Notes under the pieces: generated by a model
Told to the model about the DNA's origin: nothing
Databases searched by the model: none
The model's input: the letters and a program-made list of their open reading frames with translations, nothing else
Shown here: one piece after another, positions 35,531 through 62,308 of the stretch
Layout of the letters: every line of letters begins with the position of its first letter
How positions within the stretch are numbered: the stretch's first letter is position 1
Assembly (NCBI GenBank): GCA_964598655.1
Contig: CAZRCT010000002.1
Location: 67,146 to 131,145 of the forward strand
DNA: 64,000 nt
From: an uncultured Gemmatimonadaceae bacterium
GTDB taxonomy: Bacteria > Gemmatimonadota > Gemmatimonadetes > Gemmatimonadales > GWC2-71-9
Reading direction: 5' to 3'
Position numbers and translations under genes: made by a program

Positions 35531-35546
35531 TGGCACGGGAATGGCA
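35531..35546 (+). promoter_or_regulatory. Candidate -24/-12 (sigma-54) promoter heading the 35.7-46.8 kb operon
   Basis: TGGCAC-GGGAA-TGGCA has one mismatch to TGGCAC-N5-TTGCA. It lies in a 476-bp intergenic region, 177 nt upstream of the ATG at 35723. Confidence 0.45.
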
Positions 35547-39243: not shown

Positions 39244-41332
39244 CCCGGGGGCGCTGCCCCCGCTGGCCACCCCTAACACGGCGGTGGTGGCACCGGTCTT
39301 CTGGGTGGCGCTCGCCATCGCCGGGATCGGCGCCCTGCTCCTGCACCGGGGCGATGGCGCGCGCACGGCGCGCTGGCTCGCACTGCTCGCGGCGGGCACC
39401 GCCGCGATGCTGCAGCTCACCGCGGCGGGCCCGCTGATCCGCTACCAGCACTTCCTGCCGCTCGCCGGGGGCTGGACCACCACCCAGCTGGCCGCCCTCA
39501 CGGTGCTCGGCCTGCAGGCCGCCCTGGTGCTCAGTGCTGTGGTGCGCCGGGGCGGCGGATTGCTGGGCTGGGTGCGGGCACGGTGGTCGGGCGGCAAGGT
39601 GGCGGTGCTGGGGCTGGCCCTGGTGGGGATGTCCGCCACGCTGAGCGCATCGCCGCGGGCCTATGGGCAGGAGCTGCTGCTGGCGGGGCTGGCGCAGCTG
39701 CTGCAGCTCATCACGCTCGGCATGGCGCTCGAGGCGCTGCCGGCGCGTTGGGCGGCGCGCGCGGCCGCCTGGTTCGACGGGGCCGAGGCGGGGCGGGATC
39801 CCGTCCCGCTCCTCATGGCCGCGCTCAGCGTGGGGCTGTCGGCGCTCCTCGCCGTGCTGGTGTACGAGCGGCATCCCCACATCCCCGACGAGGCCGCGTA
39901 CCTGCTGCAGGCGCGGACCTTCGCGCGCGGGGCGCTCACGCTGCCCACGCCGCCGGTGCTGCCCGCGTTCGACGTGGACATCACCCTCAACGACCACGGC
40001 CGCTGGTTCTCCGCCTTCCCGCCCGGCTGGCCGGCCATCCTCGCGCTCGGGGCGCTGGTGCGCGCCGAGTGGCTGGTGAACCCGCTGCTCGGCGGCCTCA
40101 ACGTGCTGCTGGCCTACGCCGTGACCCGGCGGCTCTACGACCGCCGCACGGCGCGCGTGGCTGCGCTGCTGCTGGCCGCCTCGCCCTGGCACCTGTTCCT
40201 GGCCATGAGCTTCATGAGCCAGACGGTGACCCTCACGGTGGGCCTCCTCGCCGCGCTGGGGGTGGTCCGCTGGCGGCAGGGCGACTCGCCGGCGTGGCTG
40301 GTGCTGGCGGGCGCGGCGGCGGGCTGGGCCGGCCTCACGCGCCCGCTCGACGGCGTCCTCGTGGCCGGCGCCACCGGCCTGTGGCTCCTCCTGCCCGGCG
40401 ACGGGGTGAACGCCGCCCGCGCGCGCCTCACCGGCGCGGTCGCCTACGGCACCGGCATGGGGCTGACGGGCGCGCTGACGCTGCTGTACAACCGCGCCCT
40501 CACCGGCTCGCCGCTCAAGTTCCCCGTGATGCTCTGGTCCGACCGGGTGTACGGCCCGGGGAAGAATGCGCTCGGCTTCGGCCCGGATCGCGGCTTCGGC
40601 TGGACCTCGCTCGATCCCTTTCCGGGTCACGGCTGGAAGGACGTGCTGGTCAACGCCAACCTCAACACCTTCCAGGTCAACACGGAACTGCTGGGCTGGG
40701 GCACGGGGTCGCTGCTCCTCGTGGTGGCGTACTGCCTCCTCCGCCGCATCGAGCGCCGGGACCTGGGACTCCTGCTGGCCACCTTCCTGGTGGTGGGGCT
40801 CCACGCATTCTACTGGTTCAGCGGCGGGCCGGACTTCGGCGCGCGCTACTGGTTCCTGGTGATCTACCCGCTCGTGGCCCTCGCCGCGCGCGCGGTGCTG
40901 GCCTTCGAGGCGGGCTCCTCCCTGCCCGGGCGACCCCTCGCGGCCGTCCTGCTGCTGTCGGTGGTGACCCTGCTGGTCTTCCTGCCCTGGCGCGCCCTCG
41001 ACAAGTACTGGCACTATCGCCGCATGCGGCCCGGCGTGGCCGCCCTCGCCGATTCGGCCGGCTTTGGCCGGAGCCTGGTGCTGGTGCAGGGGATCCGGTT
41101 CCCCGATTACGCCGGCGCGGCCACCTTCAACCCGCTCGACCTCCAGGCCAACCAGCCCCTGTACGCCTTCGACGCCGACTCGACGCTCCGCGCTGGAGTG
41201 CTGGCCGCGTATCCCGAGCGCCCGGTGTGGGTCATCGAGGGCCCGAGCCGCACCGGCGGACCGTACCGCATCGTGGCAGGACCCTTCCCGCCGGGCGCGC
41301 CCGTGACCACGCCGATCCCGCGGCGCCCGTGA
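39227..41332 (+). CDS. GT-C glycosyltransferase (ArnT/PMT-like, GT39/GT83-type) with an extra N-terminal polytopic extension
   Basis: ERHPHIPDEAAYLLQARTFARG is the DE/loop-1 motif of ArnT/PMT-type enzymes. There are many TM helices. The start is uncertain (GTG at 39227, or at 39284/39287). Confidence 0.65.
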   Translation: MLQAASPGALPPLATPNTAVVAPVFWVALAIAGIGALLLHRGDGARTARWLALLAAGTAAMLQLTAAGPLIRYQHFLPLAGGWTTTQLAALTVLGLQAALVLSAVVRRGGGLLGWVRARWSGGKVAVLGLALVGMSATLSASPRAYGQELLLAGLAQLLQLITLGMALEALPARWAARAAAWFDGAEAGRDPVPLLMAALSVGLSALLAVLVYERHPHIPDEAAYLLQARTFARGALTLPTPPVLPAFDVDITLNDHGRWFSAFPPGWPAILALGALVRAEWLVNPLLGGLNVLLAYAVTRRLYDRRTARVAALLLAASPWHLFLAMSFMSQTVTLTVGLLAALGVVRWRQGDSPAWLVLAGAAAGWAGLTRPLDGVLVAGATGLWLLLPGDGVNAARARLTGAVAYGTGMGLTGALTLLYNRALTGSPLKFPVMLWSDRVYGPGKNALGFGPDRGFGWTSLDPFPGHGWKDVLVNANLNTFQVNTELLGWGTGSLLLVVAYCLLRRIERRDLGLLLATFLVVGLHAFYWFSGGPDFGARYWFLVIYPLVALAARAVLAFEAGSSLPGRPLAAVLLLSVVTLLVFLPWRALDKYWHYRRMRPGVAALADSAGFGRSLVLVQGIRFPDYAGAATFNPLDLQANQPLYAFDADSTLRAGVLAAYPERPVWVIEGPSRTGGPYRIVAGPFPPGAPVTTPIPRRP

Positions 41333-42321
41333 ACCTCGCCGCCCTCGCGCCCTACCGGGGCCTCCGCGTGCTGGTGCTCGGTGGGGATGGATTCATCGGC
41401 CGGTGGGTGGCACGCCTGCTGACGGCGGCCGGCGCCGAGGTGCACGTGAGCGTGCTCGACCGCGCCGCCGCCGAGCCCGTGCTGGCCGCCTGGGAGGTGC
41501 AGGCCACCGTCCAGGTGGCGGACCTCACCGACCCCGCCGCCCTCGCCATGCTGCTCGGCGCGGTGGCGCCCGCCCTGGTGATCAACGCGGTGGGCTATGG
41601 CGTGGCCCCGGCGGAGAAGCGCGCCGAGAACCTGGCGCTGGCCGAGGCCATCAATCGCGACCTGCCCCGCCGGCTCGTGGAGGTGCTGGCCGAGTGCCCC
41701 GCCCCGGCGGGGTGGCATGGCCGCCGCCTGGTGCACGTGGGCTCCATCCTGGAGTACGGCAACATCGGCGGTCACCTCCCGGAGTCGGCCGCCGCGGCGC
41801 CCTTCGGCGTCTACGGCGTGACCAAGCACGCCGGCACCGAGGCGGTCCGCCGGGAGGCGGCGGCCCGTGGGGTTCCCGCCCTCACCGCCCGGATCTGTCA
41901 GGTGTACGGCCCGGGGGAGCACCCGGGCCGGCTGCTCCCGCTGTTGCTTGCCGCGAAGCAGACCGGTACCCTCCCGGTGCTGTCCCGGGGGACCCAGCGG
42001 AAGGACTTCACCTATGTGGAAGAGACCGCCGAGGGGCTGCTCCGGCTAGGGCTGACGGCGGGGGTCCCCGGGGAGATCGTGAACCTCGCCAGCGGCCGGC
42101 TGACCTCGGTGGCCAAGTTCATCCGGGAGGCGGCACAGCTCTTGCAACTTCCGCCAGCGATCGTAAGACTCGAAAACCCGTTGCCGGACAATGAGTTAGC
42201 ACACGACGAGGTGTGCAACGACCGGCTCCGGGAGCTCACCGCATGGGTGCCAGGGCTGGACATCCGCGGTGGACTCCGCCGTACGCTCGCCTTTGGCGCG
42301 CGCCCCCTTAGCCGCGGGTAG
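41329..42321 (+). CDS. NAD-dependent epimerase/dehydratase family protein (candidate NDP-4-keto-sugar reductase/epimerase)
   Basis: The GTG start overlaps the upstream stop. It carries VLVLGGDGFIGRWVARLL (Rossmann) and YGVTKHAG (YxxxK). Confidence 0.75.
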   Translation: MNLAALAPYRGLRVLVLGGDGFIGRWVARLLTAAGAEVHVSVLDRAAAEPVLAAWEVQATVQVADLTDPAALAMLLGAVAPALVINAVGYGVAPAEKRAENLALAEAINRDLPRRLVEVLAECPAPAGWHGRRLVHVGSILEYGNIGGHLPESAAAAPFGVYGVTKHAGTEAVRREAAARGVPALTARICQVYGPGEHPGRLLPLLLAAKQTGTLPVLSRGTQRKDFTYVEETAEGLLRLGLTAGVPGEIVNLASGRLTSVAKFIREAAQLLQLPPAIVRLENPLPDNELAHDEVCNDRLRELTAWVPGLDIRGGLRRTLAFGARPLSRG

Positions 42322-46121: not shown

Positions 46122-46831
46122 CCCGTCTCTTCCTCAGCGTCCACAAGTGGGTGGGCATCGCCCTCGGCGTCCTCCTCTTCATCTGGCTGGCCAGCGGCGT
46201 GGTGATGGTGCTGCCGATGACGCTCGTGGCCCGGAACGCCAAGCCCGGCGACGTGGCCGTCGCCGGCGTCACGCTCTCCCCCGCCGCCGCCGCCGAGCTG
46301 GTGCGCACCCGCGACGGCGACACCTCGGCCGTGAAGGACTGGAGCCTCGAGATCCTCGGCAACCAGGCCTACTACCGGATCGTCACCGCGGCGAGGGGAA
46401 ATTTCCTGATCAATGGGAGCACCGGCGCCCGGCTGGAGGTCACCCGGGCCGTGGCGGAGACCCTGGCCACGGCGCGGCTGCCGAAGCCGCTGCCCGTGGC
46501 GTCGGTCACCGAGGTGAAGAAGTTCTCGCTGGGCTATCCTGCGGGGCCGCTGCCCGCGTGGCGCGTGGAGTTCGCGGACGGGGCCCACACGGTGGCCTAC
46601 GTGGGCAAGCGGGACGGCAGCGTCGGGCTCAGCACGGGGCTGCACCGGGTGCGGTTCTTCATTGCGCAGATGCACACCTTCGACCAGATCCGCACCCTCG
46701 GCCTCTCCCGCGCCATGCAGCACGGGGTGTTGGCGGTCACCAGCGCCGTTGCCCTGCTGCTGGTGTTCACGGGTTACTACCTGGTGCTGCCCCGTCGCTG
46801 GCGACGGCGCTGGGAGCAGCGTCCCGCCTGA
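46118..46831 (+). CDS. PepSY-domain membrane protein
   Basis: N-terminal SVHKWVGIALGVLLFIWLASGVVMVLP (a PepSY_TM-like helix), a second TM segment at the C-terminus, and an ATGA overlap with the upstream gene. Confidence 0.55.
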   Translation: MTRLFLSVHKWVGIALGVLLFIWLASGVVMVLPMTLVARNAKPGDVAVAGVTLSPAAAAELVRTRDGDTSAVKDWSLEILGNQAYYRIVTAARGNFLINGSTGARLEVTRAVAETLATARLPKPLPVASVTEVKKFSLGYPAGPLPAWRVEFADGAHTVAYVGKRDGSVGLSTGLHRVRFFIAQMHTFDQIRTLGLSRAMQHGVLAVTSAVALLLVFTGYYLVLPRRWRRRWEQRPA

Positions 46832-48335
46832 GCTGGGCCAGCACCTCCCGCACGCCCTCGAGGCGGCGGTCCAGTTCCTCCCGCGAGTAGTACCGCCCCC
46901 CCGCCACCACCGCGCGCACCGACCGGAGCGCGCCCAGGCTGGCGAGGGGGTTTTCGTCCACCAGGACCAGGTCCGCCACCTTGCCCGGCGTCACTGTGCC
47001 GAGGGAATCGCTCATCCTCATGAAGCGGGCGGGCGCGATGGTGGCGGCCTGGAGCGCCTCCAGGTTCGTGAGACCGGCCTCCACCAGCAGCTCGAGCTCA
47101 TCCACCAGGCTCATCCCCGGCACGCGGCGGGTGCCCGGGCTGTCGGTGCCGGCCAGGATCGGCACGCCGGCGCGCTGCATCATCCGGGTCACGCGCATCT
47201 GCAGCGCGAACTGGTTGACGAAGATCTGCTCCCGCCACGGGCCCACGGCCTTGTCGGTGGTGTCGGTGCGGAGGATCTTGGGCGGCAGCCAGGCCAGACG
47301 CGCGGGCGGGATCTCGGGCTGGATCCGCTGGATGTCACGGAGCGCCGAGAGCGTGGGCGTCTGCTCGGTGTGGTTGCGGACCAGGACCTCGATGGTTCGC
47401 GCCTCGGTGACGCTGTCCCACGTCACGAGCATCCGCTCGGCGCGCTGCCGGCGGCGCCGGGCGTGATCCCACCAGCCGATGCGCACCAAGCGCTCCCCCC
47501 ACCAGGAGAACTCGCGATCCGCAGACTCCGCCAGAGCATCGTCCTCGGCGGAGCCGGCGGCCACACCCTGGTGCAGGTGCTCCACCCCGTCCAGCCCCAG
47601 TTCCGAGGCGGTGCGCAGCGTCATCCACGGCCCGACGTGACCGACCACCTGCAATCCGCGCTTGTGGGCCTCCTCCGCCACGACGCGCAGCTCCTCCGGC
47701 TGCAGCGTCTCCACCTTGATGAAATCGACGCCAGCGTCCGCCGCGAGAGCCACCGCGCGGCGCAGGTCCGACTCTGTGTGGGGATCCCGTGGCGCGCGCG
47801 GCACCACCGGCTCGGCGGCGCCGATCTTCCAGCCGGTGTGCACGATCCTGGGCCCGGCGCGCTCGCCGCTCGCGATCTGGTCGCGCCAGGTGCGCAGCAT
47901 CCGGAAGTTGCCGGCCATGTCGCGGACCCCCGTGACCCCGTGCGCGAGGAACAACGGGAGGTGCCAGCTGGCGTTGATCTCGTAGTTGCCGGGACGGTTC
48001 CCCAGCCGGTCGATGGCCACCGCCGCCAGGTGCACGTGCATGTCCCAGAGGCCGGGCAGCAGGTAGCGCCCCCGCGCCGGGATCACCGTGGTACCCGGCG
48101 GCAGCGCCCGGTGCGACTCCTCCACCCGTTCGATCCGCCCCCCCGCCACCACCACCGTCTGGTTGGGCAGGAGCGTCCCGTGCTCCACGTCCACCACCGT
48201 CACCCCCACGAACGCCACGGGCGCGAGCGGCGGGGCGGGCACACCCTGGGCAGGCAGCGTCCCGGGCAGGAACAGCGCGACTGCGGCAAAAGCCCTACTC
48301 AAGTTGCAGAATCCCAACATGGGTAGCATCCTCAT
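46767..48335 (-). CDS. Secreted metal-dependent amidohydrolase family protein
   Basis: The start is trimmed to the ATG at 48335 (MRMLPMLGF..., a signal peptide). It carries GLWDMHVHL (HxH metal site) and a C-terminal ...GTDSPG.... It overlaps the PepSY gene 3' end convergently by 65 nt. Confidence 0.75.
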   Translation of the reverse strand: MRMLPMLGFCNLSRAFAAVALFLPGTLPAQGVPAPPLAPVAFVGVTVVDVEHGTLLPNQTVVVAGGRIERVEESHRALPPGTTVIPARGRYLLPGLWDMHVHLAAVAIDRLGNRPGNYEINASWHLPLFLAHGVTGVRDMAGNFRMLRTWRDQIASGERAGPRIVHTGWKIGAAEPVVPRAPRDPHTESDLRRAVALAADAGVDFIKVETLQPEELRVVAEEAHKRGLQVVGHVGPWMTLRTASELGLDGVEHLHQGVAAGSAEDDALAESADREFSWWGERLVRIGWWDHARRRRQRAERMLVTWDSVTEARTIEVLVRNHTEQTPTLSALRDIQRIQPEIPPARLAWLPPKILRTDTTDKAVGPWREQIFVNQFALQMRVTRMMQRAGVPILAGTDSPGTRRVPGMSLVDELELLVEAGLTNLEALQAATIAPARFMRMSDSLGTVTPGKVADLVLVDENPLASLGALRSVRAVVAGGRYYSREELDRRLEGVREVLAQLRRDAAPSAVASDGAAPGSNP

Positions 48336-48555
48336 GTCGCGCCCAGGCAACACCCGGGGGTGCACGACCGGCAGGTTTGACTGGTCTGGGGCCGGTCCCA
48401 GTGGCTGTCTGCCGAGGCTAACCCCTTGTCTCGGCATGATTTCAGCAAAAAATGCTGCTTCAGGTATCCTTGGCTCGCCCGGAACCGGGCGGAACGGCCC
48501 TGGAGGCCCTCCCGGGGCGACCTGATCCATTTCATGGCAAGGCCTAGACCGGCTC

Positions 48556-48570
48556 TGGAACGGGGATTGC
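48556..48570 (+). promoter_or_regulatory. Candidate -24/-12 (sigma-54) promoter heading the 48.6-54.9 kb operon
   Basis: TGGAAC-GGGGA-TTGC, with GG and TTGC at consensus spacing, 42 nt upstream of the ATG at 48612. Confidence 0.45.
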
Positions 48571-48611
48571 CCAACACCGGGCGTCCCTGACGGCCCCCGA
48601 ACCCCGAGTCC

Positions 48612-50129
48612 ATGACCACCGCCGCCCCCGACGCCTCCTCCCCCCCGCCGGTGCCCCCGGCGCGTGCGCGGGCCGGGACAGCGGCTGCCGGCCTGACGGG
48701 GCCGGAATGGGCCGCCCTCGGACTCCTGGTGCTGGTGGCGCTGGCGCTCCGCCTGCCGCACCTGGGCGAGGGGCTCTGGTACGACGAGATCGAGACGCTG
48801 GTGGACTATGCACGTCGCCCGCTGGGCGAGCTTCTCACCACCTTCGGCAGCAAGAACCAGCACCCCCTCTTCACCCTGCTGGCGCACCTGAGCACGAGCG
48901 CCCTCGGCGAATCGGCGTGGGCGCTCCGGCTGCCGGCGGCGCTCTTCGGGGCGGCGGGGCCGGCGGCCGTCTACCTCCTGGGCCGCCACGTGGCGTCCCG
49001 GGCCGAGGCGTTCACGGCGGCCGCGCTGCTGGCGGTGTCGTCGCACCACATCTGGTTCTCGCAGAACGCGCGCGGGTACACCGGGCTGCTCTTCCTGGCC
49101 ACGCTGGCCACCCTGGCCTTCGTGCGACTGCTGCGGGATCCCGCGGCGGGACGCGGCATGGTGGCGCTTTACGCGGTGACCACGGCGCTGGCGCTCTACA
49201 CGCACCTCACGGCGGCCTTCCAGGTGGTGGCGCACGGGCTGGTGTGGCTGGTGGCGTTCCGGGGCGCGCCCGACCGCGGCCGGAAGGCCTTCGTGGCGCT
49301 GCTGCTTGGCGGGCTCGGCGGCGTGCTGCTGTATGCCCCCGTGCTGCCGAGCCTGGTGCCCATCATGCTCGCCTCGGCGCAGCCGCCGGCGGCCACGGCG
49401 CCGCCGCCCACGGCGTGGAAGAGCCCGTTCTGGCTCGTCACCGAGATGCTCGCGGTGCTGGCCCGCGGCATCCCGGGCGGCTACCTCGGGCTCGCGGTGG
49501 TGGCGGGCATCGGCCTAACGGGGGTGGTGCGCTACGCGAAGGAGAAGCCGGTGGCGCTCGGGCTCTTCGTGCTGCCGGGCGTGGTGACGGTGGCGGCGAT
49601 CGTGGCGCTCAAGCACAACCTGTGGCCGCGGTTCTTCTTCTTCCTCGCGGGGTTCATCCTGCTGGTGGGGGTGCGCGGCTGGTTCGCGGTGGCAGGGTGG
49701 GCCGGGAAGTACGCGCGGCCACTGCAGCTGGCGGGTGCGGCGGTGGCGGTGCTGGCCCTGGGCAGCACGGCCGGTCGCGCCTGGGGGCCCAAGCAGCAGT
49801 ATGAGGAGGCGGTGGCCTTCGTGGAGGCGCAGGCGGCGCCCGGCGACGTGGCGGCCACGGTGGACCTGACCAACTACCCGGTGCACCGGTGGCTGGGCCG
49901 CGACTGGCCCGAGCTCACCACCGACACGAGCCTCGCGGCGCTGGAGCGGCCGGGCCGGCGCACCTGGGTGCTCACGACCTTCCCCATCCGCCTCGTGGCG
50001 GAAGCGCCGGGCGTGGTGACCCGCCTGGCGGAGCGGTACGACACGGTGCGGGTGTTCCCCGGCACCATCAGTGGTGGCGACATCGTGGTGCTGGGCTCCC
50101 GCCCCGCCCCGACCCCGACGACGGAGTGA
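48612..50129 (+). CDS. GT-C glycosyltransferase (GT39/ArnT-like)
   Basis: LRLPHLGEGLWYDEIETLVDYA is a loop-1 acidic motif after TM1. About 10 TM helices follow, then a soluble C-terminal domain. Confidence 0.65.
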   Translation: MTTAAPDASSPPPVPPARARAGTAAAGLTGPEWAALGLLVLVALALRLPHLGEGLWYDEIETLVDYARRPLGELLTTFGSKNQHPLFTLLAHLSTSALGESAWALRLPAALFGAAGPAAVYLLGRHVASRAEAFTAAALLAVSSHHIWFSQNARGYTGLLFLATLATLAFVRLLRDPAAGRGMVALYAVTTALALYTHLTAAFQVVAHGLVWLVAFRGAPDRGRKAFVALLLGGLGGVLLYAPVLPSLVPIMLASAQPPAATAPPPTAWKSPFWLVTEMLAVLARGIPGGYLGLAVVAGIGLTGVVRYAKEKPVALGLFVLPGVVTVAAIVALKHNLWPRFFFFLAGFILLVGVRGWFAVAGWAGKYARPLQLAGAAVAVLALGSTAGRAWGPKQQYEEAVAFVEAQAAPGDVAATVDLTNYPVHRWLGRDWPELTTDTSLAALERPGRRTWVLTTFPIRLVAEAPGVVTRLAERYDTVRVFPGTISGGDIVVLGSRPAPTPTTE

Positions 50130-53399: not shown

Positions 53400-54923
53400 A
53401 TGCCACGCTCCGGGATCGGGTTGCGCATCTTCCTGACGTGCTGGATGGTGTACTGCCTGCACTACGCCACCGACTTCATGCGGGAGCATTTCCTGGTGGC
53501 GTCGATCGTGGAGCGGCACACCTTCACGCTCGATCCCTACGCCGGCCGCCACGCCGACCTCTTCCAGTTCCAGGGCCACACCTACCACGGTGCCAACCCC
53601 GGCATCTCGATGCTCGGCGCGGTCCCCTACTTCGTGCTGCACCCGCTGGTGGAGCGCGTGGTCCAGGGCGAGCTGGCGAAGCGCCGCGCCACCGGCGACA
53701 CCGGCGCCGTCTACAACGACCCGCGCCCCGCGCGCCAGGCTTTCTATGCCTGGGCCCGCGCCAACGGCTACGACATCCGCTTCGGGCTCATCGGGCTCAT
53801 CACCATGGTCTTCTGCATGGCGCCGCTCGCGGCGGCCGGCGGGGTGGTGATGTTCAAGACCCTCCGCGGCGCCGGGCTCAGCGACAAGCTCGCCGTCGGC
53901 GGCACGCTCCTCTACGCCTTCGGCACGCCGCTCTTCTTCCGGAGCGCGTACCTGAACCAGAACCTGGCCGTCACCCATTTCATCTTTGCGGCCTTCGCGG
54001 TGCTCTGGAACCCGGGCGACTGGACCGGCCTCACGGAGAAGAAGCGCGAGCTCCTCGCCGGCTTCCTCGGCGGCATGGCGCTGCTCTGCGACTACACCGG
54101 CGCCGTGCTGCTGGCCGGCATCGGCCTCTACGCGCTGGTGCGGGCGTGGCCGGCCGGCGGGGCGCGCGGGGCCATCCAGGCCGGCGTGCGCATCACCCTC
54201 GGCGCGCTCGGGCCCATGGTGGTGCTCTGGTGGTACCAGTACGAGTGCTTCGGCAACGCCTTCATGCCGCCGCAGAAGTGGATGCCGCCCACGCAGGCGC
54301 TCTCCGACAAGGGCTGGAAGGGCGTCATGGGTCCCGACCCGGCCCTCTTCAAGATGCTGCTCTTCGACCCGCGCTTCGGGCTCTTCGTCACCGGGCCGCT
54401 GCTCATGCTCGGGCTGCTGGCGCCGCTGGCGCGGCGCCGGAGCACCTTCCAGCCCGCCCCGCGCGAGCTGTGGGCGTTGCTCCTCTTCCCGGCCCTGGTG
54501 CTGCTCTTCTTCTCGAGCCTGAGCTACACCCAGCTCCAGTACATCCACGGCATCCGTTACGTGGTGCCGGCGATCCCGTTCCTCCTCGTGGCCACGCTGG
54601 TGGTGCTGCTGGCGCTGCCGCGCTGGATCAGCCTCTCCCTCGGCATCCTCTCACTGGCGCTCGGCTGGGGACTGGCCATGGGGCGGCTCGAAGAGCAGCA
54701 CCGGAGCATCCTGGTGGGGCTCAAGTCGGTGTACCTGGGCGGCCTCCGGCTGCCGGCCCTGACCACCCTGGGCCGGATGTCCGCCCAGTATGCCCCGGAG
54801 CTGGGCGGGATGATCTCGCCGCTCCCTGCGTTCCTGGTGGCCGGGGCCTTCCTGTGGCTCGTCTGGCGGGTAGAATGGCCGTCCCGCCGCCTCGGGGATG
54901 ACCCGGCTCCCGGCGGTACCTGA
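53400..54923 (+). CDS. Polytopic membrane protein (candidate GT-C-like transferase or polymerase)
   Basis: ATG at 53400. About 12 TM helices, with an N-terminal loop containing ATDFMREHF...HTYHGANPGISML. The family is not securely recognised. Confidence 0.55.
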   Translation: MPRSGIGLRIFLTCWMVYCLHYATDFMREHFLVASIVERHTFTLDPYAGRHADLFQFQGHTYHGANPGISMLGAVPYFVLHPLVERVVQGELAKRRATGDTGAVYNDPRPARQAFYAWARANGYDIRFGLIGLITMVFCMAPLAAAGGVVMFKTLRGAGLSDKLAVGGTLLYAFGTPLFFRSAYLNQNLAVTHFIFAAFAVLWNPGDWTGLTEKKRELLAGFLGGMALLCDYTGAVLLAGIGLYALVRAWPAGGARGAIQAGVRITLGALGPMVVLWWYQYECFGNAFMPPQKWMPPTQALSDKGWKGVMGPDPALFKMLLFDPRFGLFVTGPLLMLGLLAPLARRRSTFQPAPRELWALLLFPALVLLFFSSLSYTQLQYIHGIRYVVPAIPFLLVATLVVLLALPRWISLSLGILSLALGWGLAMGRLEEQHRSILVGLKSVYLGGLRLPALTTLGRMSAQYAPELGGMISPLPAFLVAGAFLWLVWRVEWPSRRLGDDPAPGGT

Positions 54924-54934
54924 CCCCCCGGGGG

Positions 54935-54950
54935 TGGCACCAAGCTTGCA
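54935..54950 (+). promoter_or_regulatory. Exact-consensus sigma-54 promoter (TGGCAC-N5-TTGCA)
   Basis: tggcac caagc ttgca, read directly. It lies in the intergenic region 12 nt after the upstream stop, ~170 nt upstream of the ATG at 55121. The downstream leader is locally AT-richer. Confidence 0.6.
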
Positions 54951-55120
54951 CGTTTGCGGGGTCGTTTGTTTTCGCTAACCCATTGCTGTTCAGTACGTTA
55001 CGAGACAGGTGCCGGCTCCAGTGAGCGCCGCGTCACCTCCTCCGGGGCAAGGCTGTTGGCAGGGTGCGACACTCGGTGCCGCGTCCGCCCGGCTTCCCCC
55101 ACCCCAACCCGAGGTACCGC

Positions 55121-55918
55121 ATGTCGGCGACTCCCGGTTCTCCCCGCCCTACCCCGCTCCGGGTGGACGTGGTCATCCCGGTGCTCAACGAGGCCCACGT
55201 CCTCGAGAAGAGCGTCACCGAGGTGCGCGCCTTCCTGGCGGCCAACACCGACTGGGCCTGGCGGGTGGTGGTGGTGGACAACGGCTCCACCGACGGCACC
55301 GACCGTGTGGCGAAGATGCTGGTGGAGCGGCACGGCGACGTGCAGTTCCTGCAGCTGCCGCAGCGCGGCCGCGGGCGGGCGCTCCGGCATGCGTGGACGC
55401 AGAGCGACGCCGACATCATGAGCTACACCGACGTGGACCTCTCCACCGAGCTCGCGGCACTCCCCCGGCTGGTCAACGGCGTGGCCGGCGGGCAGTACGA
55501 CCTCGGCACCGGCTCGCGCCTCCTGCCCGCCTCGCAGACCACGCGGTCCTTCAAGCGTGAGTTCATCTCCCGCTGCTACAACCTGATGATCAAGGCCGTG
55601 CTCTGGACCAGCTTCAGCGACGCCCAGTGCGGCTTCAAGGTGGTGAGCCGGCGCGTGGTGCAGGAGATCGTGCCCAACATCAAGGACCAGGCGTGGTTCT
55701 TCGACACCGAGCTCCTGGTGCTGGCCGAGAAGCACGGCTACAAGATCATGGACATCCCGGTCCGCTGGATCGAGGACGACGACAGCCGCGTGAAGATCGT
55801 CAAGACCGCCTGGGACGACATCAAGGGCGTGGCGCGGCTCCGCTGGACGCTCTGGTTCGGCACCTTCCAGCCGGCGTCGGCGTCGCTGCCGGTCTCGAGC
55901 CGCGCGCCGGGCGCCTGA
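55121..55918 (+). CDS. Family-2 glycosyltransferase, DPM1/Alg5-like polyprenyl-phosphate sugar synthase type
   Basis: The ATG at 55121 is preceded by GAGG. It carries VDVVIPVLNEAH...VVVDNGSTDGTD...RGRGRAL...YTDVDLS...DTELLVLAEKHGY. An alternative GTG lies at 55064. Confidence 0.8.
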   Translation: MSATPGSPRPTPLRVDVVIPVLNEAHVLEKSVTEVRAFLAANTDWAWRVVVVDNGSTDGTDRVAKMLVERHGDVQFLQLPQRGRGRALRHAWTQSDADIMSYTDVDLSTELAALPRLVNGVAGGQYDLGTGSRLLPASQTTRSFKREFISRCYNLMIKAVLWTSFSDAQCGFKVVSRRVVQEIVPNIKDQAWFFDTELLVLAEKHGYKIMDIPVRWIEDDDSRVKIVKTAWDDIKGVARLRWTLWFGTFQPASASLPVSSRAPGA

Positions 55919-55952
55919 GGCGTCCCATGCCGCGCGTCCGCAGGATGCCCAC

Positions 55953-56864
55953 ATGGACATGACAGGGCCCATCGCCCTGACCGGAGCGGGCGGCTTCGTG
56001 GGCCGTCGGCTCCTCGCCCAGCTCTCTCCCGACCGCTATCCCGACGTCCGCTGTCTCATCCGCGAGCCCGCCCGGCTCGCGGCGTCGCTTCCGGCGCCGG
56101 GGTGGCGCGCGGTGGCGGGGACCCTCGCCGACGAGCAGGCGCTCGCCACGCTGGTGGCCGGCGCCCATACCGTGGTGCACCTGGCCGCCACCACCGGGAA
56201 GGCGCGGCCGGCGGAGTACACCGCCACCAACGTGGAGGGCACCCGGCGCCTCGTGGCCGCCGCCCGCGCGGCGGGCGTCCGGCGCATCATCGCGCTGTCG
56301 AGCGTGGCGGCGGGCTTCGCCGACCAGCGGCACTATCCCTACGCCGCCAGCAAGCGCGCCATGGAGCAGGTGCTCCGGGAGTGCGGCATCCCCTCGCTGA
56401 TCCTTCGCCCCACCATGATCCTGGGCGAGGGCAGTCCCGTCCTGACGGGCCTCCGGACCCTGGCCTGCGCTCCCGTCGGCATCTGCTTCGGCCCCGGCAC
56501 CCTGCCGGTGCAACCCGTCCACGTGGACGACGTGGCCGAAGTGCTGGCCGGCGCGCCGGCAGTGCCTGACGCGACCGGCCTCGTGGGCCTCGGCGGTCCC
56601 GAGGTGCTCGCCTTTCTCGACCTGCTCCGCGCCATCCGCACCCGGGGGCGCGGGCGACCAGGTCCCTTCCTGCACGTTCCGCTCGGTCCCGTGCGCGCCG
56701 CGCTGGCGCTGGCCGAGCCGCTGCTCTTTCCTGTCCTGCCGCTCACCGCGGGCCAGCTCGCATCGTTCGCGAATCCCGGCACCGTACCGGCCGAACCCTG
56801 GCCGAGCGGGCTCCGTCGCCCGACCCGGCCGCTGGCGGCAATGCTCTCCTCGCTCCATGCCTGA
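55953..56864 (+). CDS. NAD(P)-dependent SDR (extended / NmrA-like epimerase-reductase)
   Basis: IALTGAGGFVGRRLL is a Rossmann motif and YAASKRAME is YxxxK. Confidence 0.7.
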   Translation: MDMTGPIALTGAGGFVGRRLLAQLSPDRYPDVRCLIREPARLAASLPAPGWRAVAGTLADEQALATLVAGAHTVVHLAATTGKARPAEYTATNVEGTRRLVAAARAAGVRRIIALSSVAAGFADQRHYPYAASKRAMEQVLRECGIPSLILRPTMILGEGSPVLTGLRTLACAPVGICFGPGTLPVQPVHVDDVAEVLAGAPAVPDATGLVGLGGPEVLAFLDLLRAIRTRGRGRPGPFLHVPLGPVRAALALAEPLLFPVLPLTAGQLASFANPGTVPAEPWPSGLRRPTRPLAAMLSSLHA

Positions 56865-57306
56865 CTCCCCAGCCGCCCTCGCGCGGGAAAGCGCCGTCTT
56901 CGCGCGCTACCTCGCCGGCGTCACCACGACGCCCTACGTCACCCAGGCGTACGCCCGCTGCCACCCCACCATGCCCGCCCTGGCCAAGGGCGTGCCCGAC
57001 CGCTTCGACCGCTTCCTCGTGCGCGTGGCCACCGCCGGGGGCCCGTTCCCCCGCATCGCCGACGCCTACGCGCGCCGGGTGCGGCCCACGGGCCTGCTGC
57101 GGCAGAAGCTGGTGCTCATGTGCGCCGTGCTCGAGTCGAGCCCGCCCGCGCACGACTACCTCAACACCGCCGCCGCCGGCTCCCTCGCGGGGACGGTGGT
57201 CCGCATCGGCCTGGCGGGCCTGACGAGTGTCCTCGCCACCCTGGCCGGCGTCGTGCTGCTCGGCCCGGCGCACCTGGCGCTCCGCGGGAAGGGGGCGGCC
57301 GCATGA
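56857..57306 (+). CDS. Hypothetical small protein with a C-terminal hydrophobic segment
   Basis: 149-aa ORF overlapping both neighbouring genes. The segment SLAGTVVRIGLAGLTSVLATLAGVVLLG looks like a TM helix. Confidence 0.45.
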   Translation: MPDSPAALARESAVFARYLAGVTTTPYVTQAYARCHPTMPALAKGVPDRFDRFLVRVATAGGPFPRIADAYARRVRPTGLLRQKLVLMCAVLESSPPAHDYLNTAAAGSLAGTVVRIGLAGLTSVLATLAGVVLLGPAHLALRGKGAAA

Positions 57307-58913
57307 CCCACGTCGTGGTGGTGGGCTCCGGGGCCTCGGGGGTGCACTTCGCGCTCACCGCGCTGGAGCGCGGGCACGACGTGACGATGGTGGACGTAGG
57401 GATCGAGCGGCCGGCCCCGGTGGAGCGGGGCGCGAGCATCGAAGGAATGAAGGACCGGCTGGCCGATCCCGCCGCCTGGTTCCTGGGCGAGGACGGCCGC
57501 AACGTGGTGTACCCCGCCACCAAGGCCAGCTACTACGGCTTCCCGCCCAGCAAGGAATACGTCTTCCGCACGCCGGGCGCGTTCCGCTCCCGGGCGGAGC
57601 AGATGGTGCCGGTGTTCTCGTTTGCGCAGGGTGGCCTGGCCGAGGCGTGGACCGGCGGCGCCTACGCCTTCGGGCCCACGGACCTGGCCGAGTTTCCCTT
57701 CGGCTACGACGACATCGCGCCGTTCTACGCGCAGGTGGCGGAGCGGATCGGCGTCGGCGCCGAGCCGGACGATTTGGCGCAGTTCATTCCCTGCGACGCA
57801 CCGTACCTCCCGCCGCTCCCCTTCGACCCGCATTCGGCGCACCTCGTGGCGCGCTACCAGCGGGTGCGCCCGGCGCTGCAGCAGGACCTCGGCTTCTTCC
57901 TCGGCCGCTCCCGCGTGGCCACGCTGAGCCGCGGGCACCGCGGCCGCCAGGGCTGCGGGCAGCTCGGCCGCTGCTTCTGGGGCTGCCCCAACGAGTCGCT
58001 CTACACCCCGTCGTACACCCTGCGCGAGCTGCGGCAACATCCGCGCTTCACCTACATGCCCGGCCTCCTGGCCACGCACCTCGAGCAGGATGCCGGCGCC
58101 CGGATCACCGCGGTGGTGGCCCGACCGCTGGCCGGGGGCGACCCGGTGCGCGTCCCGGGCGAGGCCTTCGCCCTCGCGGCGGGCGCCCTGCCGTCCTCGG
58201 CGCTGGTGCTGGCCACCCACCACGCCCACAGCGGCGAGGTGGCGAGCCTCGAGGGGCTGATGGACAACCGGCAGGTGCACGTGCCCTTCCTCACCCCAGC
58301 CATGATGGGGAAGGAAGTGCGCACGGCGAGCTACCAGTTCCACCTCCTGGCCTTCGGCCTCACGGAGCGGAACCCGGCCGAGTACGTGCACGCGCAGATC
58401 ACCACCCTCAAGGCGGCGGCGGTGCACCCCATCGTGCAGGGCCTGCCGCTCGACCTGGCCGGCAGCCTCGGCATCTTCCGGGCCCTCCGCACCGGGCTCG
58501 CGCTGGCCAACGTCAACTTCCACGACCGGCGCCGGACCGAGAGCCGAGTGACCATCGTGCCGCGCACCGACGGGCCGGCGGAACTGCGCATCCACTACGT
58601 GGACGACCCGCAGGAAGAGGCACTCGTGGCGCGCACGCTGGGCCGGGTCAAGAAGGCCCTGGGCCGGCTGGGCTGCGTGGTCCCGCCCGGCATGACGCGG
58701 GTGCTCCCGAAGGGCACCAGCGTGCACTACTCCGGCACGCTGCCCATGACCCGCACCGACGCGGGCCGCTTCAGCTGCACCCCCGAGGGCCGGCTCCGGG
58801 GCTGGGCCAACCTCTACGTGGCCGACGGGGCGGGCTTCGCGTTCCTCCCGGCCAAGAACCTGACCTTCACGCTGATGGCCAACGCCTCACGGATCGCGAC
58901 GGCGCTGGCGTGA
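57303..58913 (+). CDS. GMC-family FAD-dependent oxidoreductase
   Basis: The ATG at 57303 overlaps the upstream stop. N-terminal VVVVGSGASGVHFA is the FAD-binding motif, and the C-terminal LYVADGAGFAFLPAKNLTFTLMANASRIA matches GMC_oxred_C. Confidence 0.7.
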   Translation: MTHVVVVGSGASGVHFALTALERGHDVTMVDVGIERPAPVERGASIEGMKDRLADPAAWFLGEDGRNVVYPATKASYYGFPPSKEYVFRTPGAFRSRAEQMVPVFSFAQGGLAEAWTGGAYAFGPTDLAEFPFGYDDIAPFYAQVAERIGVGAEPDDLAQFIPCDAPYLPPLPFDPHSAHLVARYQRVRPALQQDLGFFLGRSRVATLSRGHRGRQGCGQLGRCFWGCPNESLYTPSYTLRELRQHPRFTYMPGLLATHLEQDAGARITAVVARPLAGGDPVRVPGEAFALAAGALPSSALVLATHHAHSGEVASLEGLMDNRQVHVPFLTPAMMGKEVRTASYQFHLLAFGLTERNPAEYVHAQITTLKAAAVHPIVQGLPLDLAGSLGIFRALRTGLALANVNFHDRRRTESRVTIVPRTDGPAELRIHYVDDPQEEALVARTLGRVKKALGRLGCVVPPGMTRVLPKGTSVHYSGTLPMTRTDAGRFSCTPEGRLRGWANLYVADGAGFAFLPAKNLTFTLMANASRIATALA

Positions 58914-59030
58914 TGGAGATCACACCCCGTGCGTCCGGGCCCGCGAGGATCGTCACTCCCGTGGCCGGGGTCGCTCCATAGATTTAGGGGTCCACTGCTG
59001 CCCGTGCCTGTCCCGTGCTGGAGGAGTCCG

Positions 59031-60812
59031 ATGGTCCGGATCCGCCCCGTCGTCTCGCTGGTGTCCATGGTCGCCGCCCTCGCCGCCTGCGGCGGGAGCG
59101 GCGGGGACGGGGGCGGCACCAACCCCACGCCCACCGCGCCCAAGACCGTCACCATCACCCCGTCCCCGATCAGCCTGTTCGTGGGGGATTCGCTGCAGCT
59201 CACCGCGGTGGTCCGGGACTCCAACAACAACATCCTGGCCAACAGCACGGTCACCTGGGGGAGCGGCAACGGCGGCACGGCCACCGTGACGGCCGGCGGC
59301 CGGATCAAGGGCATCGCGGCCGGCGCCACGCAGGTCACCGCCTCGGCGAGCCCCGCCTCCGCGCAGGCCGCGGTGACCGTGTCCGCCAAGCCGGCCGGCA
59401 ACGCGTTCCATCCCAACCTGAGCACCTACATCGCCGGCAACGACATCGAGCTGGCCCGCGACGTCACGGTGGACGCCCAGGGCAACGTGATCGTGGTGGG
59501 CAACACCTACTCGGACAACTTCCCGGTGACCCCGGGCGCGTACGACGTGACCCACGCCACCGGCTTCGACCCGCCGGCGGACGCGTTCATCATGAAGATC
59601 TCGCCGGGTGGCGCGCTGGTGGCCTCCACCTTCCTGGGCGGGCCCAACTACGAGCGCATCTACGGCGTCGAGACCGACGCGCAGGGATTCATTTACGTGA
59701 GCGGGCGCGCCGGGGCCTCGTTCCCCGTGACCAACGGCGCCTTCCAGACCACCTTCGGCGGCGGCAGCACCGCCAACTTCTACGGGCCGCAGGATGCGCT
59801 GGTCTGCAAGATGCAGCCCGACCTCTCCGCCCGCGTCTGGTGCAGCTACCTCGGCGTGGGCGACGACGGCATCTCGCGCGACCTGACCATCGACGCCCAG
59901 GGCAACGTGTACGTGGTGGCGTGGACCACGGCCGGCGGGTTCCCGGCGGGCTGGTTCACCAACGCCTACCAGCCCACCAAGGGCGCCGGCGAGGACGTGC
60001 TCGTGGCCAAGATCAAGAGCGACGGCAGCCAGGTGCTCTGGGCCACCTACCTCGGCGCCTCGGGAGACGACGGCGGCACCCCCGCCATCCGGCTGGACCC
60101 GAACGGCAACGTGATCGTCCTGCTGCAGACCACCTCCCCGGACCTCCCCACCCCGGGCAGCGGCGACCACACCTACGGCGGCGGCGCCACCGACCAGTAC
60201 CTGGCCAAGCTGAGCCCCGACGGCTCGCAACTCCTGTACGGCACCTACCTGGGCGGCAACGGCGGCGAGGCCTCCGAGACCCACGGCCTCGCGGTGGATG
60301 GCAGCGGAAATGCCTACGTGGCCGTGGCCACGAGCTCCACCAACCTGACCTTCCCCTCCGGCAACTACCAGTCGCAGTTCGGCGGCGGCCAGATGGACGG
60401 GGTGCTCTGGAAGGTGGGGACCAACGGCGCGATCCTGGCCGGGACGTATTACGGCGGCAACGCGCTCGAGGGCATCCAGGGCGTCTCCACCGACGCCAAC
60501 GGCGATGTGTACTTCTCGGCCACCACCAAGTCGGCCAGCGTGCCCACCACGGTGGCCGGCGGCGGCAACGCCAATGGCCAGGGGGACGCGGTGGCCGTCA
60601 AGATGTCCTCCAGCCTGAGCCAGCTGCTCTACGCGCAGCGCTTCGGCGGCAGCGGGGACGAGACCGCGCGCGCCTCGTGGATCGGCAGCAACGGGGCGTT
60701 CGTGATCGTGGGCCAGACCGACTCCAACAACTTCCCCCTCGTCAACGCCCTCCAGTCGCAGGCGGGCGGCAGCGGCCTCGACGACGCCTGGCTGATCCGC
60801 CTGATCCCATGA
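59031..60812 (+). CDS. Lipoprotein with a Big_2 Ig-like domain and SBBP beta-propeller repeats
   Basis: GGAGGA lies 5 nt upstream of the ATG. Lipobox ...MVAALAAC. Big_2 reads ITPSPISLFVGDSLQLTAVV...VTWGS...GRIKGIAAG.ATQVTA. There are repeated units of the form D..GN.YV.G.T.S.NFP.T.GA.Q. Confidence 0.75.
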   Translation: MVRIRPVVSLVSMVAALAACGGSGGDGGGTNPTPTAPKTVTITPSPISLFVGDSLQLTAVVRDSNNNILANSTVTWGSGNGGTATVTAGGRIKGIAAGATQVTASASPASAQAAVTVSAKPAGNAFHPNLSTYIAGNDIELARDVTVDAQGNVIVVGNTYSDNFPVTPGAYDVTHATGFDPPADAFIMKISPGGALVASTFLGGPNYERIYGVETDAQGFIYVSGRAGASFPVTNGAFQTTFGGGSTANFYGPQDALVCKMQPDLSARVWCSYLGVGDDGISRDLTIDAQGNVYVVAWTTAGGFPAGWFTNAYQPTKGAGEDVLVAKIKSDGSQVLWATYLGASGDDGGTPAIRLDPNGNVIVLLQTTSPDLPTPGSGDHTYGGGATDQYLAKLSPDGSQLLYGTYLGGNGGEASETHGLAVDGSGNAYVAVATSSTNLTFPSGNYQSQFGGGQMDGVLWKVGTNGAILAGTYYGGNALEGIQGVSTDANGDVYFSATTKSASVPTTVAGGGNANGQGDAVAVKMSSSLSQLLYAQRFGGSGDETARASWIGSNGAFVIVGQTDSNNFPLVNALQSQAGGSGLDDAWLIRLIP

Positions 60813-62308
60813 TCCGACCCGCCCTCCTGCTGGTCCTGGGCGCGCTGGCCTGCGCGCCCCGGACCGGCGGCGACGCGCCCGCCGTCACCGACGCCACCGG
60901 CGCCACCATCGCCTTCTCCGCCGTGCTCGGCGGCACCCACCGCGACATGGACATGGCCCGCGACGTCCTCACCGACAGCGCGGGCGTGGTGTTCGTGGTG
61001 GGGAACGCCGCCTCCCCCGACTTCCCCGTCACCCCGGGCGCGCTCGACACCGTGCCGGGCGGCGGCCAGTTCCCAAGCGACGCCTTCGTAGCGGCGCTCG
61101 GCCCCGACGGCGCGCTCCGCTGGTCCACCGTGCTCGGCGGCCCCGGCTTCGAGCGGGCCTACGCCCTGGAGCGCCGGGCCGACGGCGACCTGGTCATCGC
61201 CGGCCGCGCGGGCGACGGGCTCCCCACCACGCCGGGCGTGGTCCAGCCCACCTTCGGCGGCGACCAGAAGAACCGCGCCCCCTACGGCCGGCAGGACGGC
61301 TTCGTCTGCCGCCTGAGCGGCGACGGCGCCACGCTCCGCTTCTGCACCTACCTCGGCGGCGCCGACAACGGCTTCATCCGCGACATGGACCTCGACGCCG
61401 AGGGCAACATCGTCGTGGTGCTGGGCTCCACCCTGGGCGACCTCCCGGCCGGGTGGTTTGCCCGCGCCGCCCAGCCGCGCCACGGCGGCGACGAGGACGT
61501 GGTAGTGGCCAAGCTCGCGGCCGACGGGACGCGGGTCCTCTGGGCCACCTATCTCGGCGGCCCGGGCAAGGAACTCGGCGCCCCCACCGTGCGCGTGGCG
61601 CCGGACGGCACGGTGCTGGTGCTCCTCAGCACCCAGTCGGCCGGGCTCCCGACGCCCGGCGGCTTCGACAGCACCCTCGGCGGGACGCAGGACCTCTACC
61701 TGGCGCGGCTGGCGCCCGACGGGTCGCGGATCGTGATGGGCACCTACGTCGGCGGCAGCGGCGTCGAGGCCATCGAGACCCACGGCCTGGCCATCGGCCC
61801 CGACAGTTCCATCTACGTCACCGGCGGCAGCGATTCGCCCGACTTCCCCACCACCCCCGGGAGCTGGCGCCCCGCGCTCGCGGACGCGCGCAACGGCTTC
61901 GTGGTGCGGGTGAGCCCGGCGGGCCGCCTGCTCGCGGGCTCGCTGGTGGGCGGGGCGGGCTGGGACTATGGGGAAGGGATTGCCACCGACGGGGCGGGCC
62001 GGGTGCTGGTCACGGGCTACACCGAGTCACCGGTGCTGGGCGGGGACTCCGCCAGCGCGGCGCTCACCGACCACGGAGACGTGATGGTGGCGCTCTTCTC
62101 GCCCGACCTGTCGCAGCTGCTCTACGGGACCCGGGTGGGCGGCAGCGACCGGGACATGGGCCGCGCCGCGGCCGTGGACCGGGACGGCTGGCTCGTGGTG
62201 GTGGGCCACACCTCGTCCGACGACTGGCCGGCCCACGGCGCCCTGCCCCGCCCGGGGGGCGGCGGGCTCGACGCCATCGTCCTCCGGCTCAGGCCCCAGG
62301 CGCCCTGA
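60809..62308 (+). CDS. SBBP beta-propeller repeat protein (probable lipoprotein), tandem paralog
   Basis: The ATG overlaps the upstream stop (ATGA). It has a signal peptide ending ...GALAC and the same repeat architecture (DSAGVVFVVGNAASPDFPVTPGA...). Confidence 0.75.
   Translation: MIRPALLLVLGALACAPRTGGDAPAVTDATGATIAFSAVLGGTHRDMDMARDVLTDSAGVVFVVGNAASPDFPVTPGALDTVPGGGQFPSDAFVAALGPDGALRWSTVLGGPGFERAYALERRADGDLVIAGRAGDGLPTTPGVVQPTFGGDQKNRAPYGRQDGFVCRLSGDGATLRFCTYLGGADNGFIRDMDLDAEGNIVVVLGSTLGDLPAGWFARAAQPRHGGDEDVVVAKLAADGTRVLWATYLGGPGKELGAPTVRVAPDGTVLVLLSTQSAGLPTPGGFDSTLGGTQDLYLARLAPDGSRIVMGTYVGGSGVEAIETHGLAIGPDSSIYVTGGSDSPDFPTTPGSWRPALADARNGFVVRVSPAGRLLAGSLVGGAGWDYGEGIATDGAGRVLVTGYTESPVLGGDSASAALTDHGDVMVALFSPDLSQLLYGTRVGGSDRDMGRAAAVDRDGWLVVVGHTSSDDWPAHGALPRPGGGGLDAIVLRLRPQAP

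Follow-up and report, generated by a model that had tools for sequence, protein, structure and literature searches.

The canonical promoters of the sigma-54 (RpoN) class, such as Escherichia coli glnAp2, Klebsiella nifH and Pseudomonas putida Pu, have an upstream enhancer and a site for IHF, whose consensus is WATCAANNNNTTR. Sigma-54 enhancers placed downstream are known as well, for instance the ftr elements of Caulobacter flaN and flbG, which are bound by FlbD, and that of rocG, which lies beyond the gene and about 1.5 kb away. The rocG/RocR system of Bacillus subtilis is a natural example (Belitsky and Sonenshein 1999, PNAS 96:10290, as cited in PMC4348106), and passages of Francke et al. 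(2011, PMC3162934) place exopolysaccharide and cell-envelope genes under sigma-54 control. For the Gemmatimonadota, a widespread soil phylum, no experimentally established case of transcription control was found in the literature. The subject of this analysis is an element of the -24/-12 type, TGGCACCAAGCTTGCA, that stands ahead of an operon beginning with a GT2 glycosyltransferase gene in a 64,000 nt stretch (the window) of contig CAZRCT010000002.1 from an uncultured Gemmatimonadaceae bacterium. It is very probably a functional sigma-54 dependent promoter, internal to an envelope-glycosylation array, and there is good reason to think that it gives the GT2 gene, an SDR gene, an open reading frame (ORF) of 149 aa and a GMC oxidoreductase gene an input of their own, apart from that of the upstream genes; the SBBP/Big_2 genes past the GMC gene are possibly served by it as well.

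Like glnAp2, nifH and Pu, the locus has a GG at -24 and a GC at -12, an enhancer-binding protein (EBP) with a GAFTGA loop encoded nearby, a dyad-symmetric candidate activator site some 100-115 nt from the promoter and, between the two, an AT-rich candidate site with an IHF-like core (CAA-N4-TTR). Unlike them, it is mirrored in the clade to which the window belongs: the promoter adjoins a stop codon and the candidate sites would fall within the transcribed leader, at about +27 and +102. With rocG and flaN/flbG it shares the location of its (candidate) activator sites 3' of the transcription start, and because activator sites are found there in the rocG and ftr systems a downstream geometry can work. 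It differs from rocG in that the candidate site falls within the 5' leader, about 100 nt from its start, and from both systems in the phased AT-rich site in between and in an arrangement kept across a clade. Since downstream enhancers are known for sigma-54, the mirrored arrangement would still be a variant of a known theme; the promoter type itself is ordinary, and it is the downstream place of the likely activator site that seems unusual.

The -24/-12 element ahead of the GT2 gene

The element has its GG at 54936-54937 and its GC at 54948-54949, 10 nt apart, and agrees with TGGCAC-N5-TTGCA at 11 of 11 specified positions. This is the single exact occurrence of that consensus on either strand of the window, the G+C content of which is about 72%; dinucleotide-preserving shuffles (n=100) gave a mean of 0.01 exact matches, with a match in one shuffle, and when up to one mismatch was allowed there were three sites in the window as against 0.76 expected. 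It lies on the same strand as the GT2 gene in a non-coding gap of 197 nt, 11 nt after the TGA of the preceding gene (54921-54923) and 170 nt ahead of the GT2 ATG at 55121, which has a Shine-Dalgarno sequence, GAGG, at 55111-55114. The leader downstream of the element is AT-richer, most clearly at 54951-55005, and a transcription start is predicted near 54960. A sigma-70 promoter scan of 54600-55300 found none. An earlier note on this DNA had proposed an exact-consensus sigma-54 promoter at this place, rare by chance and followed by an AT-richer leader; the match, its rarity, its position between stop and start and the composition of the leader have all been borne out, and the reading as a promoter now has the support of an element conserved ahead of GT2 orthologues in some 40 Gemmatimonadota loci.

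The comparison set comprised 80 loci with a GT2 orthologue, including about 55 from Gemmatimonadota and others from further phyla. Nearly all of the closest relatives of the GT2 protein come from metagenome-assembled genomes of Gemmatimonadota, the top one with 95% identity. A GG-N10-GC element was present in the gap before GT2 in about 40 of the approximately 55 Gemmatimonadota loci, a count that pools the TGGYAY-N5-TTGC type with TTGCG endings and with the CGGCAC-N5-CTGC[AT] and TGGCCG-N5-TTGCT variants. The strict pattern TGG[CT]A[CTG]-N5-T[TC]GC[ATC] occurs 20 times in the 37.7 kb upstream of GT2 (+ strand), as against three occurrences in the other 1.2 Mb that the 80 loci comprise (both strands), which makes it more than 200 times denser upstream of GT2 than elsewhere in the loci. 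A position weight matrix built from the strict sites picks up more loci, with elements ending TTGCG or TTGA, and the CGGCAC and TGGCCG variants were found in 13 further loci and in two loci respectively. When 23 loci with long leaders were aligned (41% mean identity), TGG, A and TTG were invariant in the promoter and the 5-nt spacer was constant in length and variable in sequence. Locus L002 (85% protein identity) keeps 15 of the 16 bases of the 16-mer with both flanks diverged and with ordinary third-position change in the preceding coding sequence, and L025, L040 and L047 retain the element ahead of GT2 although another gene (LPG_synthase_TM-like) stands upstream. As far as these alignments go, the pattern of conservation is what a sigma-54 promoter predicts and is predicted neither by a terminator nor by chance; from the motif and its conservation, both observed, we infer the dependence on sigma-54.

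A number of observations count the other way. About a quarter of the Gemmatimonadota loci lack the element, mainly those in which GT2 directly adjoins the preceding gene, and it was not found in any of the loci from other phyla; because so many loci are without it, the cassette can evidently be expressed in its absence. There is no space for an upstream enhancer outside coding DNA at TGGCACCAAGCTTGCA, and no conserved upstream enhancer was found before it; inverted repeats in the preceding coding region (54753-54808) were considered as such a site and rejected, as they are not conserved in L002. The gene for sigma-54 is not in the window, a six-frame translation of which contains no RpoN-box motif.

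Leader dyads and the candidate activator

The whole of the intergenic space lies downstream of the element, and the resulting leader of about 160 nt contains two conserved dyad motifs, one AT-rich and one GC-rich. The centre of the AT-rich dyad is 39 nt past the C of the -12 element in the window (about +27); in 20 of the 23 aligned loci the distance is 38-39 nt and in the other three 59-60 nt, and as L043, which is outside the alignment, has 59 nt, the longer spacing is seen in four loci. It is longer by 21 nt, or two helical turns, and is the only length variant. The GC-rich dyad is centred 114 nt past the -12 C (about +102) and about 58 nt before the ATG, and its distance from the AT-rich dyad is 75 +/- 2 nt in 22 of 23 loci (78 nt in L031), the sequence in between not being conserved though the spacing is kept. 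Distances held constant, save for a variant longer by whole turns, suggest that the geometry of the DNA is under constraint. The AT-rich dyad amounts to a symmetrised IHF core, YAA-N4-TTG-N5-CAA-N4-TTR, and is proposed to be a site for an architectural (IHF-like) or other dimeric DNA-binding protein; the core CAA-N4-TTR is present in 13 of the 23 leaders and its TTR in all 23, the copy in the window being CAG-N4-TTA.

Several other identities for these motifs were tried and rejected. The GC-rich dyad fits GG-N10-GC, as a second sigma-54 promoter, in L003, L004 and L048 and does not in the window and most other loci. An ECF-type promoter (AAC-N16-CGT) fits the AT-rich dyad of the window; in relatives, however, AAC does not keep its C, and the motif has two-fold symmetry. 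A module linking the AT-rich dyad to a sigma-54 site at +39 is confined to the GT2 leaders and to a pair at 42131/42186 in the window, most copies of the AT-rich dyad having no such neighbour. No small ORF is conserved in the leader.

The order promoter, AT-rich dyad, GC-rich dyad characterises the window's clade, in 23 loci, and two other layouts were encountered. In L010 and L018 the order is the classical one, with the GC-rich dyad followed after 97 nt by the AT-rich dyad and after a further 105 nt by GGGCACCGTCGTTGCC, all three elements lying upstream of the membrane-protein gene, whose 3' neighbour GT2 adjoins it. In L025 and L040 the promoter is preceded by a real intergenic region, and tandem dyads (TGTGGC... 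and CGTGGC-N6-GCGACA) are found 116-169 nt upstream of its -12 element; no AT-rich dyad was found in these two loci.

The GC-rich motif recurs in the window. Nine matches to TGTNGC-N6-GCNACA with no more than one mismatch were counted as against 2.04 expected, a figure reached by none of 100 shuffles. The three exact copies, at 19658, 23544 and 48335, are all intergenic: the first has the EBP promoter on one side and the divergent wzc-like promoter on the other, with about 105 nt to the -12 element of the latter, the second before a Wza-like gene in tandem with a copy at 23521, and the third about 225 nt before a sigma-54-like site at 48556.

The EBP is the only one in the window and, as the earlier note had stated, is an NtrC-type activator with an intact GAFTGA loop (near 18729) in a recognisable Sigma54_activat domain (3.7e-64). 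Orthologues with 74-91% identity occur in 80 metagenome contigs. It scores 378.2 bits against TIGR02915 (PEP_resp_reg), the cut-off being 502.6, and therefore does not reach equivalog level there; it is also below the cut-off for AtoC, NtrC and other equivalogs. A sigma-54 system is implied by the presence of an EBP with an intact GAFTGA loop, and supplementary file 1 of PMC3162934 records, for Gemmatimonas aurantiaca T-27, both sigma-54 itself and EBPs; the further sigma-54-like sites of the island point to such a system too. The EBP gene has a sigma-54-like promoter of its own, TGGTATCAAAGATGCA, which recurs in relatives, the closest of which have TGGTAYCAAAGATGCW 93-136 nt ahead of the EBP start. 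The divergent Wzc-like gene (a chain-length/tyrosine-kinase gene) has CGGTACTGACCTTGCA 65 nt before its ATG at 19839, and about 20 EBP loci have CGGTAY-N5-TTGC or GGGTAC/TGGTAT variants at the matching place. Between the two promoters lies a candidate shared enhancer comprising GCAAC-N11-GTTGC (19601-19623), the palindrome TGCTACAATGTAGCA (19651-19665) and the dyad TGTAGCATCTTCGCAACA (19658-19675). It was also observed that this interval holds four GTTGCG/CGCAAC hexamers in addition to the palindrome, which is perfect, and the dyad, which is an exact TGTNGC-N6-GCNACA. The half-site GCAACA/TGTTGC is found at 4.47 per kb upstream of 74 EBP orthologues, often in two or three copies, compared to 0.45 per kb elsewhere in those loci. 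A sigma-54 promoter and motif repeats ahead of an EBP gene are the usual signature of autoregulation. As the same motif is present in the GT2 leader, the island's EBP is the best candidate activator, and it is moderately likely to be the activator of the GT2 operon.

The proposed sequence of events is as follows. Sigma-54 holoenzyme would occupy the element through its GG (-24) and GC (-12) as a closed complex, and would fire only upon remodelling by an AAA+ EBP, a step taken from the known behaviour of this promoter class. The activator would probably be the island's two-component EBP in its phosphorylated form, probably bound to the TGTKGC-N6-GCMACA dyad, some 114 nt past the -12 element on its downstream side, and the IHF-like dyad would probably bend the DNA and so return the EBP to the closed complex. 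ATP hydrolysis would then open the promoter, and transcription of the GT2, SDR, 149-aa ORF and GMC genes would start near 54960. The dyads, their fixed spacing and the EBP are there to be seen, and it is from these that we infer who the activator is and what the dyads do; the mirrored, downstream enhancer geometry is put forward as a tentative reading, with the odds somewhat against it. The same degree of caution applies to the wider idea that one Gemmatimonadota clade has turned round a complete sigma-54 module of promoter, architectural site and enhancer, the sister lineages keeping the classical order.

Other sites of this kind were noted in the window. CGGCACAGCTCTTGCA at 42131-42146, which has one mismatch, is followed 41 nt later by the AT-rich dyad AAACCCGTTGCCGGACAATGAGTTA (42174-42198, centre 42186), a spacing that matches that of the GT2 leader. 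Both elements fall within the coding sequence of an SDR gene (41329-42321), at its 3' end, and a second GT2 gene (ATG 42325) begins 178 nt further on; 42131 was on that account rejected as an intergenic promoter, and the pair may be an internal promoter embedded in coding sequence. A third copy of the AT-rich dyad, CTAACC-N16-GTTAC at 35423-35449 and in the same frame as 54975, is found within the gap of 476 nt that precedes the gene at 35723, and a sigma-54-like site, TGGCACGGGAATGGCA (35531-35546), follows it by about 109 nt. Tandem GC-rich dyads, TGTGGCGCGACCGCGACT and TGTAGCCTTCCAGCCACA, 23 nt apart at 23521-23561, lie between a divergent response-regulator/GGDEF-like gene and the Wza-like export gene (ATG 23695), with no clear sigma-54 element nearby. 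Before the PMT_2 gene (ATG 48612) there is the exact GC-rich dyad at 48335-48352, then an AT-rich segment at 48436-48465, which is the most AT-rich 30-mer of the window and contains CAGCA-N5-TGCTG, and then TGGAACGGGGATTGCC at 48556-48571. The stretch 48335-48571 has the look of a classical arrangement, with enhancer, bend and promoter in turn, for the gene that opens the array; the sites at 48556 and 35531 are both weaker sigma-54-like candidates.

Alternative explanations

The explanation that survives best is that the sigma-54 promoter is real and that the leader dyads are operators of other regulators. The one at +27 could, for example, serve a repressor or roadblock and the one at +102 an unrelated transcription factor of the whole island, and the EBP would act instead through sites within the upstream coding region, over a long distance or with no sequence-specific contact to DNA. 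Although we find it rather doubtful, this has to be taken seriously, and most of what favours it also weighs against a downstream enhancer. AT-rich dyads are common in Gemmatimonadota contigs, mostly without an adjacent sigma-54 site, and because of this a general architectural protein or a global regulator fits them better than a dedicated one. The GC-rich dyads at 23521/23544 and 31306 are intergenic and have no recognisable sigma-54 element, and in L020, L021, L026 and L042 the membrane-protein gene is closely preceded by GC-rich dyads, again without one. A centre at +27 is a typical position for a repressor; a protein bound there would be near the downstream edge of the open complex and could equally repress. 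The GC-rich dyad of the window leader, a putative site of the EBP, is a single copy with one mismatch to TGTNGC-N6-GCNACA. Against the involvement of other regulators stand the joint occurrence of enhancer, bend and promoter in classical order in L010 and L018, the upstream dyads of L025 and L040, the fixed spacing with its sole variant of +21 nt, the half-site shared with the EBP's own upstream region and the failure to find a conserved upstream site from which the EBP might act. As a separate observation, strongly palindromic AT-rich dyads (e.g. CTAAGCTATTGTTCCATAGAACGTTAGC) are present about 1.5 kb upstream of the EBP start in EBP loci L087-L120, at a similar position in many contigs, and this recurrence indicates a motif that is widespread in the phylum and probably bound by an abundant protein.

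It is very unlikely that the 16-mer is the site of another protein or a 3'-end element (a terminator or processing site) of the upstream membrane-protein gene. The 16-mer begins 11 nt past a stop codon, and a weak terminator-like hairpin with a T-rich tail (54945-54960) does overlap the 3' half of TGGCACCAAGCTTGCA; yet the hairpin is not conserved, since L001 and L002 differ right past the -12 element, and the 16-mer is kept behind a different upstream gene. Moreover, the invariant positions are exactly the bases contacted by sigma-54, with a variable 5-nt spacer, and the CGGCAC-N5-CTGCA variants keep only GG-N10-GC and its neighbours.

A cis-regulatory RNA in the leader (a riboswitch or attenuator, the dyads being RNA hairpins) is, if anything, slightly less probable still. 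Leader length and the spacing of the elements are conserved, both motifs are self-complementary, and two leaders of the eight that were folded came out more stable than shuffled versions (z = -2.44 and -1.83), but the remaining z-scores (0.54, -0.73, 0.15, 1.69, -0.19 and 0.72) bring the mean to about zero. An Rfam scan of the whole window gave 0 matches and RNAalifold predicted no structure in the leader. Pairing in the two putative dyad hairpins was 69.3%, compared to 69.9% in partner shuffles, with fewer compensatory pairs than in the shuffles, so that there is no covariation beyond column composition. The same motifs also occur upstream of the promoters in L010, L018, L025 and L040, in DNA that those promoters would not transcribe. 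Neither dyad behaves as an RNA structure, and the leader signals would appear to act as DNA.

A chance occurrence without function can be dismissed almost entirely: loose GG-N10-GC matches are indeed many in GC-rich genomes (a relaxed scan found 663 outside the upstream windows), but neither the near-zero expectation for an exact match, nor the excess of the strict pattern at the orthologous position, nor an element conserved amid diverged flanks would be accounted for.

The gene array and its significance

The coordinates of the promoter, its candidate partners and the surrounding genes are collected in Table 1. The operon described in the earlier note, with GT2, SDR and GMC oxidoreductase genes, was recovered over 55121-58913, with the 149-aa ORF among them. 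Public gene calls on four metagenome contigs that encode an identical GT2 protein use the same start, giving 265 aa. Family matches of the GT2 protein are weak and all below cut-off (DPM1-like enzymes, AglJ, ArnC and PpgS), every NCBIfam equivalog is under its cut-off for the four proteins from GT2 to GMC, and no curated family covers the membrane protein or the 149-aa ORF. Relatives of the GMC oxidoreductase align only from about residue 60 of the longest ORF.

Table 1. Positions, strands and grounds for assignment of the promoter, dyads and genes discussed
Feature	Position	Strand	Remarks
Sigma-54 type -24/-12 promoter, TGGCACCAAGCTTGCA	54935-54950	+	exact match; conserved before GT2
AT-rich dyad, TAACCCATTGCTGTTCAGTACGTTA	54976-55000	.	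consensus yAA-N3-ATTG-N5-CAAT-N3-TTAc; AA and TT invariant in 23 loci
GC-rich dyad, TGTTGGCAGGGTGCGACA	55054-55071	.	consensus TGTKGC-N6-GCMACA; candidate enhancer (EBP-binding site)
GT2	55121-55918	+	265 aa; related to polyprenyl-phosphate sugar transferases of the DPM1/ArnC kind
SDR, NAD-dependent epimerase/dehydratase-type	55953-56864	+	family scan
149-aa ORF	56857-57306	+	no family match
GMC-type FAD oxidoreductase	57120 (longest ORF) to 58913	+	family scan
Upstream membrane-protein gene	53400-54923	+	507 aa (public gene calls); weak DUF2079 similarity
NtrC/AtoC-family EBP	17959-19485	-	Response_reg, Sigma54_activat, AAA_lid_14, HTH_8; GAFTGA
Histidine kinase gene	16862-17962	-	3' of the EBP gene, same strand
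Sigma-54-like promoter of the EBP gene, TGGTATCAAAGATGCA	19572-19587	-	recurs in relatives
Candidate shared enhancer of the divergent EBP and wzc-like promoters	19601-19676	.	dyads and half-site enrichment
Sigma-54-like promoter, CGGTACTGACCTTGCA	19758-19773	+	before the Wzc-like gene

The co-directional array that contains TGGCACCAAGCTTGCA begins near 48612, and upstream of the element it includes the PMT_2 (GT-C) gene, a second GT2 gene and genes for an LPG_synthase_TM protein, an amine-oxidase-like flavoprotein and the membrane protein. Because this last co-directional gene stops 11 nt before it, the element is a candidate for a promoter internal to a long envelope-polysaccharide array. Further upstream the island encodes Wza-like, Wzc-like and sulfatase-family proteins, a UDP-GlcNAc 2-epimerase, the histidine kinase and the one EBP. 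The cassette order (membrane protein, GT2, SDR, 149-aa ORF, GMC) is kept in most of the 80 loci (at least 60), from Gemmatimonadota, Acidobacteriota, Planctomycetota, Myxococcota and other phyla. The company of a FAD oxidase and an SDR with a polyprenyl-phosphate-type GT2 and GT-C-like membrane proteins suggests, by analogy, the oxidation and reduction (epimerisation) of a lipid-linked sugar. The locus resembles the cases treated in the relevant passages of PMC3162934 and the PrsK/PrsR systems of PEP-CTERM in having a promoter before glycosyltransferase and sugar-modifying genes and in the content of the island, where a two-component EBP is encoded along with Wza-like, Wzc-like, GT2 and GT-C (PMT_2) proteins. 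It departs from them in that the EBP falls below the PEP_resp_reg cut-off, no exosortase was identified in the scanned parts of the window, and the target cassette is one without a described function.

Two irregularities in the gene models were observed at the ends of the array. Past the GMC gene, two long ORFs on the + strand, 58929-60812 and 59015-62308, overlap in different frames and both contain SBBP beta-propeller repeats, representing either two tandem genes, the second starting near 60800, or a frameshift. At the other end, the longest ORF of an amidohydrolase gene (46767-49235, - strand) shares about 600 nt with the PMT_2 gene; since every Pfam domain in it is C-terminal, its start is probably near 48300-48500, which would make 48300-48611 a divergent intergenic region.

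The gain for the Gemmatimonadota is a well-supported sigma-54 promoter, with TGGYAY-N5-TTGC and CGGCAC-N5-CTGC as the consensus for the phylum, together with a candidate EBP and a candidate binding motif for it. A widely conserved and uncharacterised envelope cassette is thereby tied to signal-dependent control, which agrees with the view, found in passages of PMC3162934, of sigma-54 as governing the exterior of the cell. If the mirrored arrangement of the enhancer is true, this would be a natural and conserved sigma-54 downstream enhancer whose mirrored and classical forms could be compared directly, and the two forms would provide a natural pair of constructs for the effect of enhancer position and DNA bending on the sigma-54 holoenzyme.

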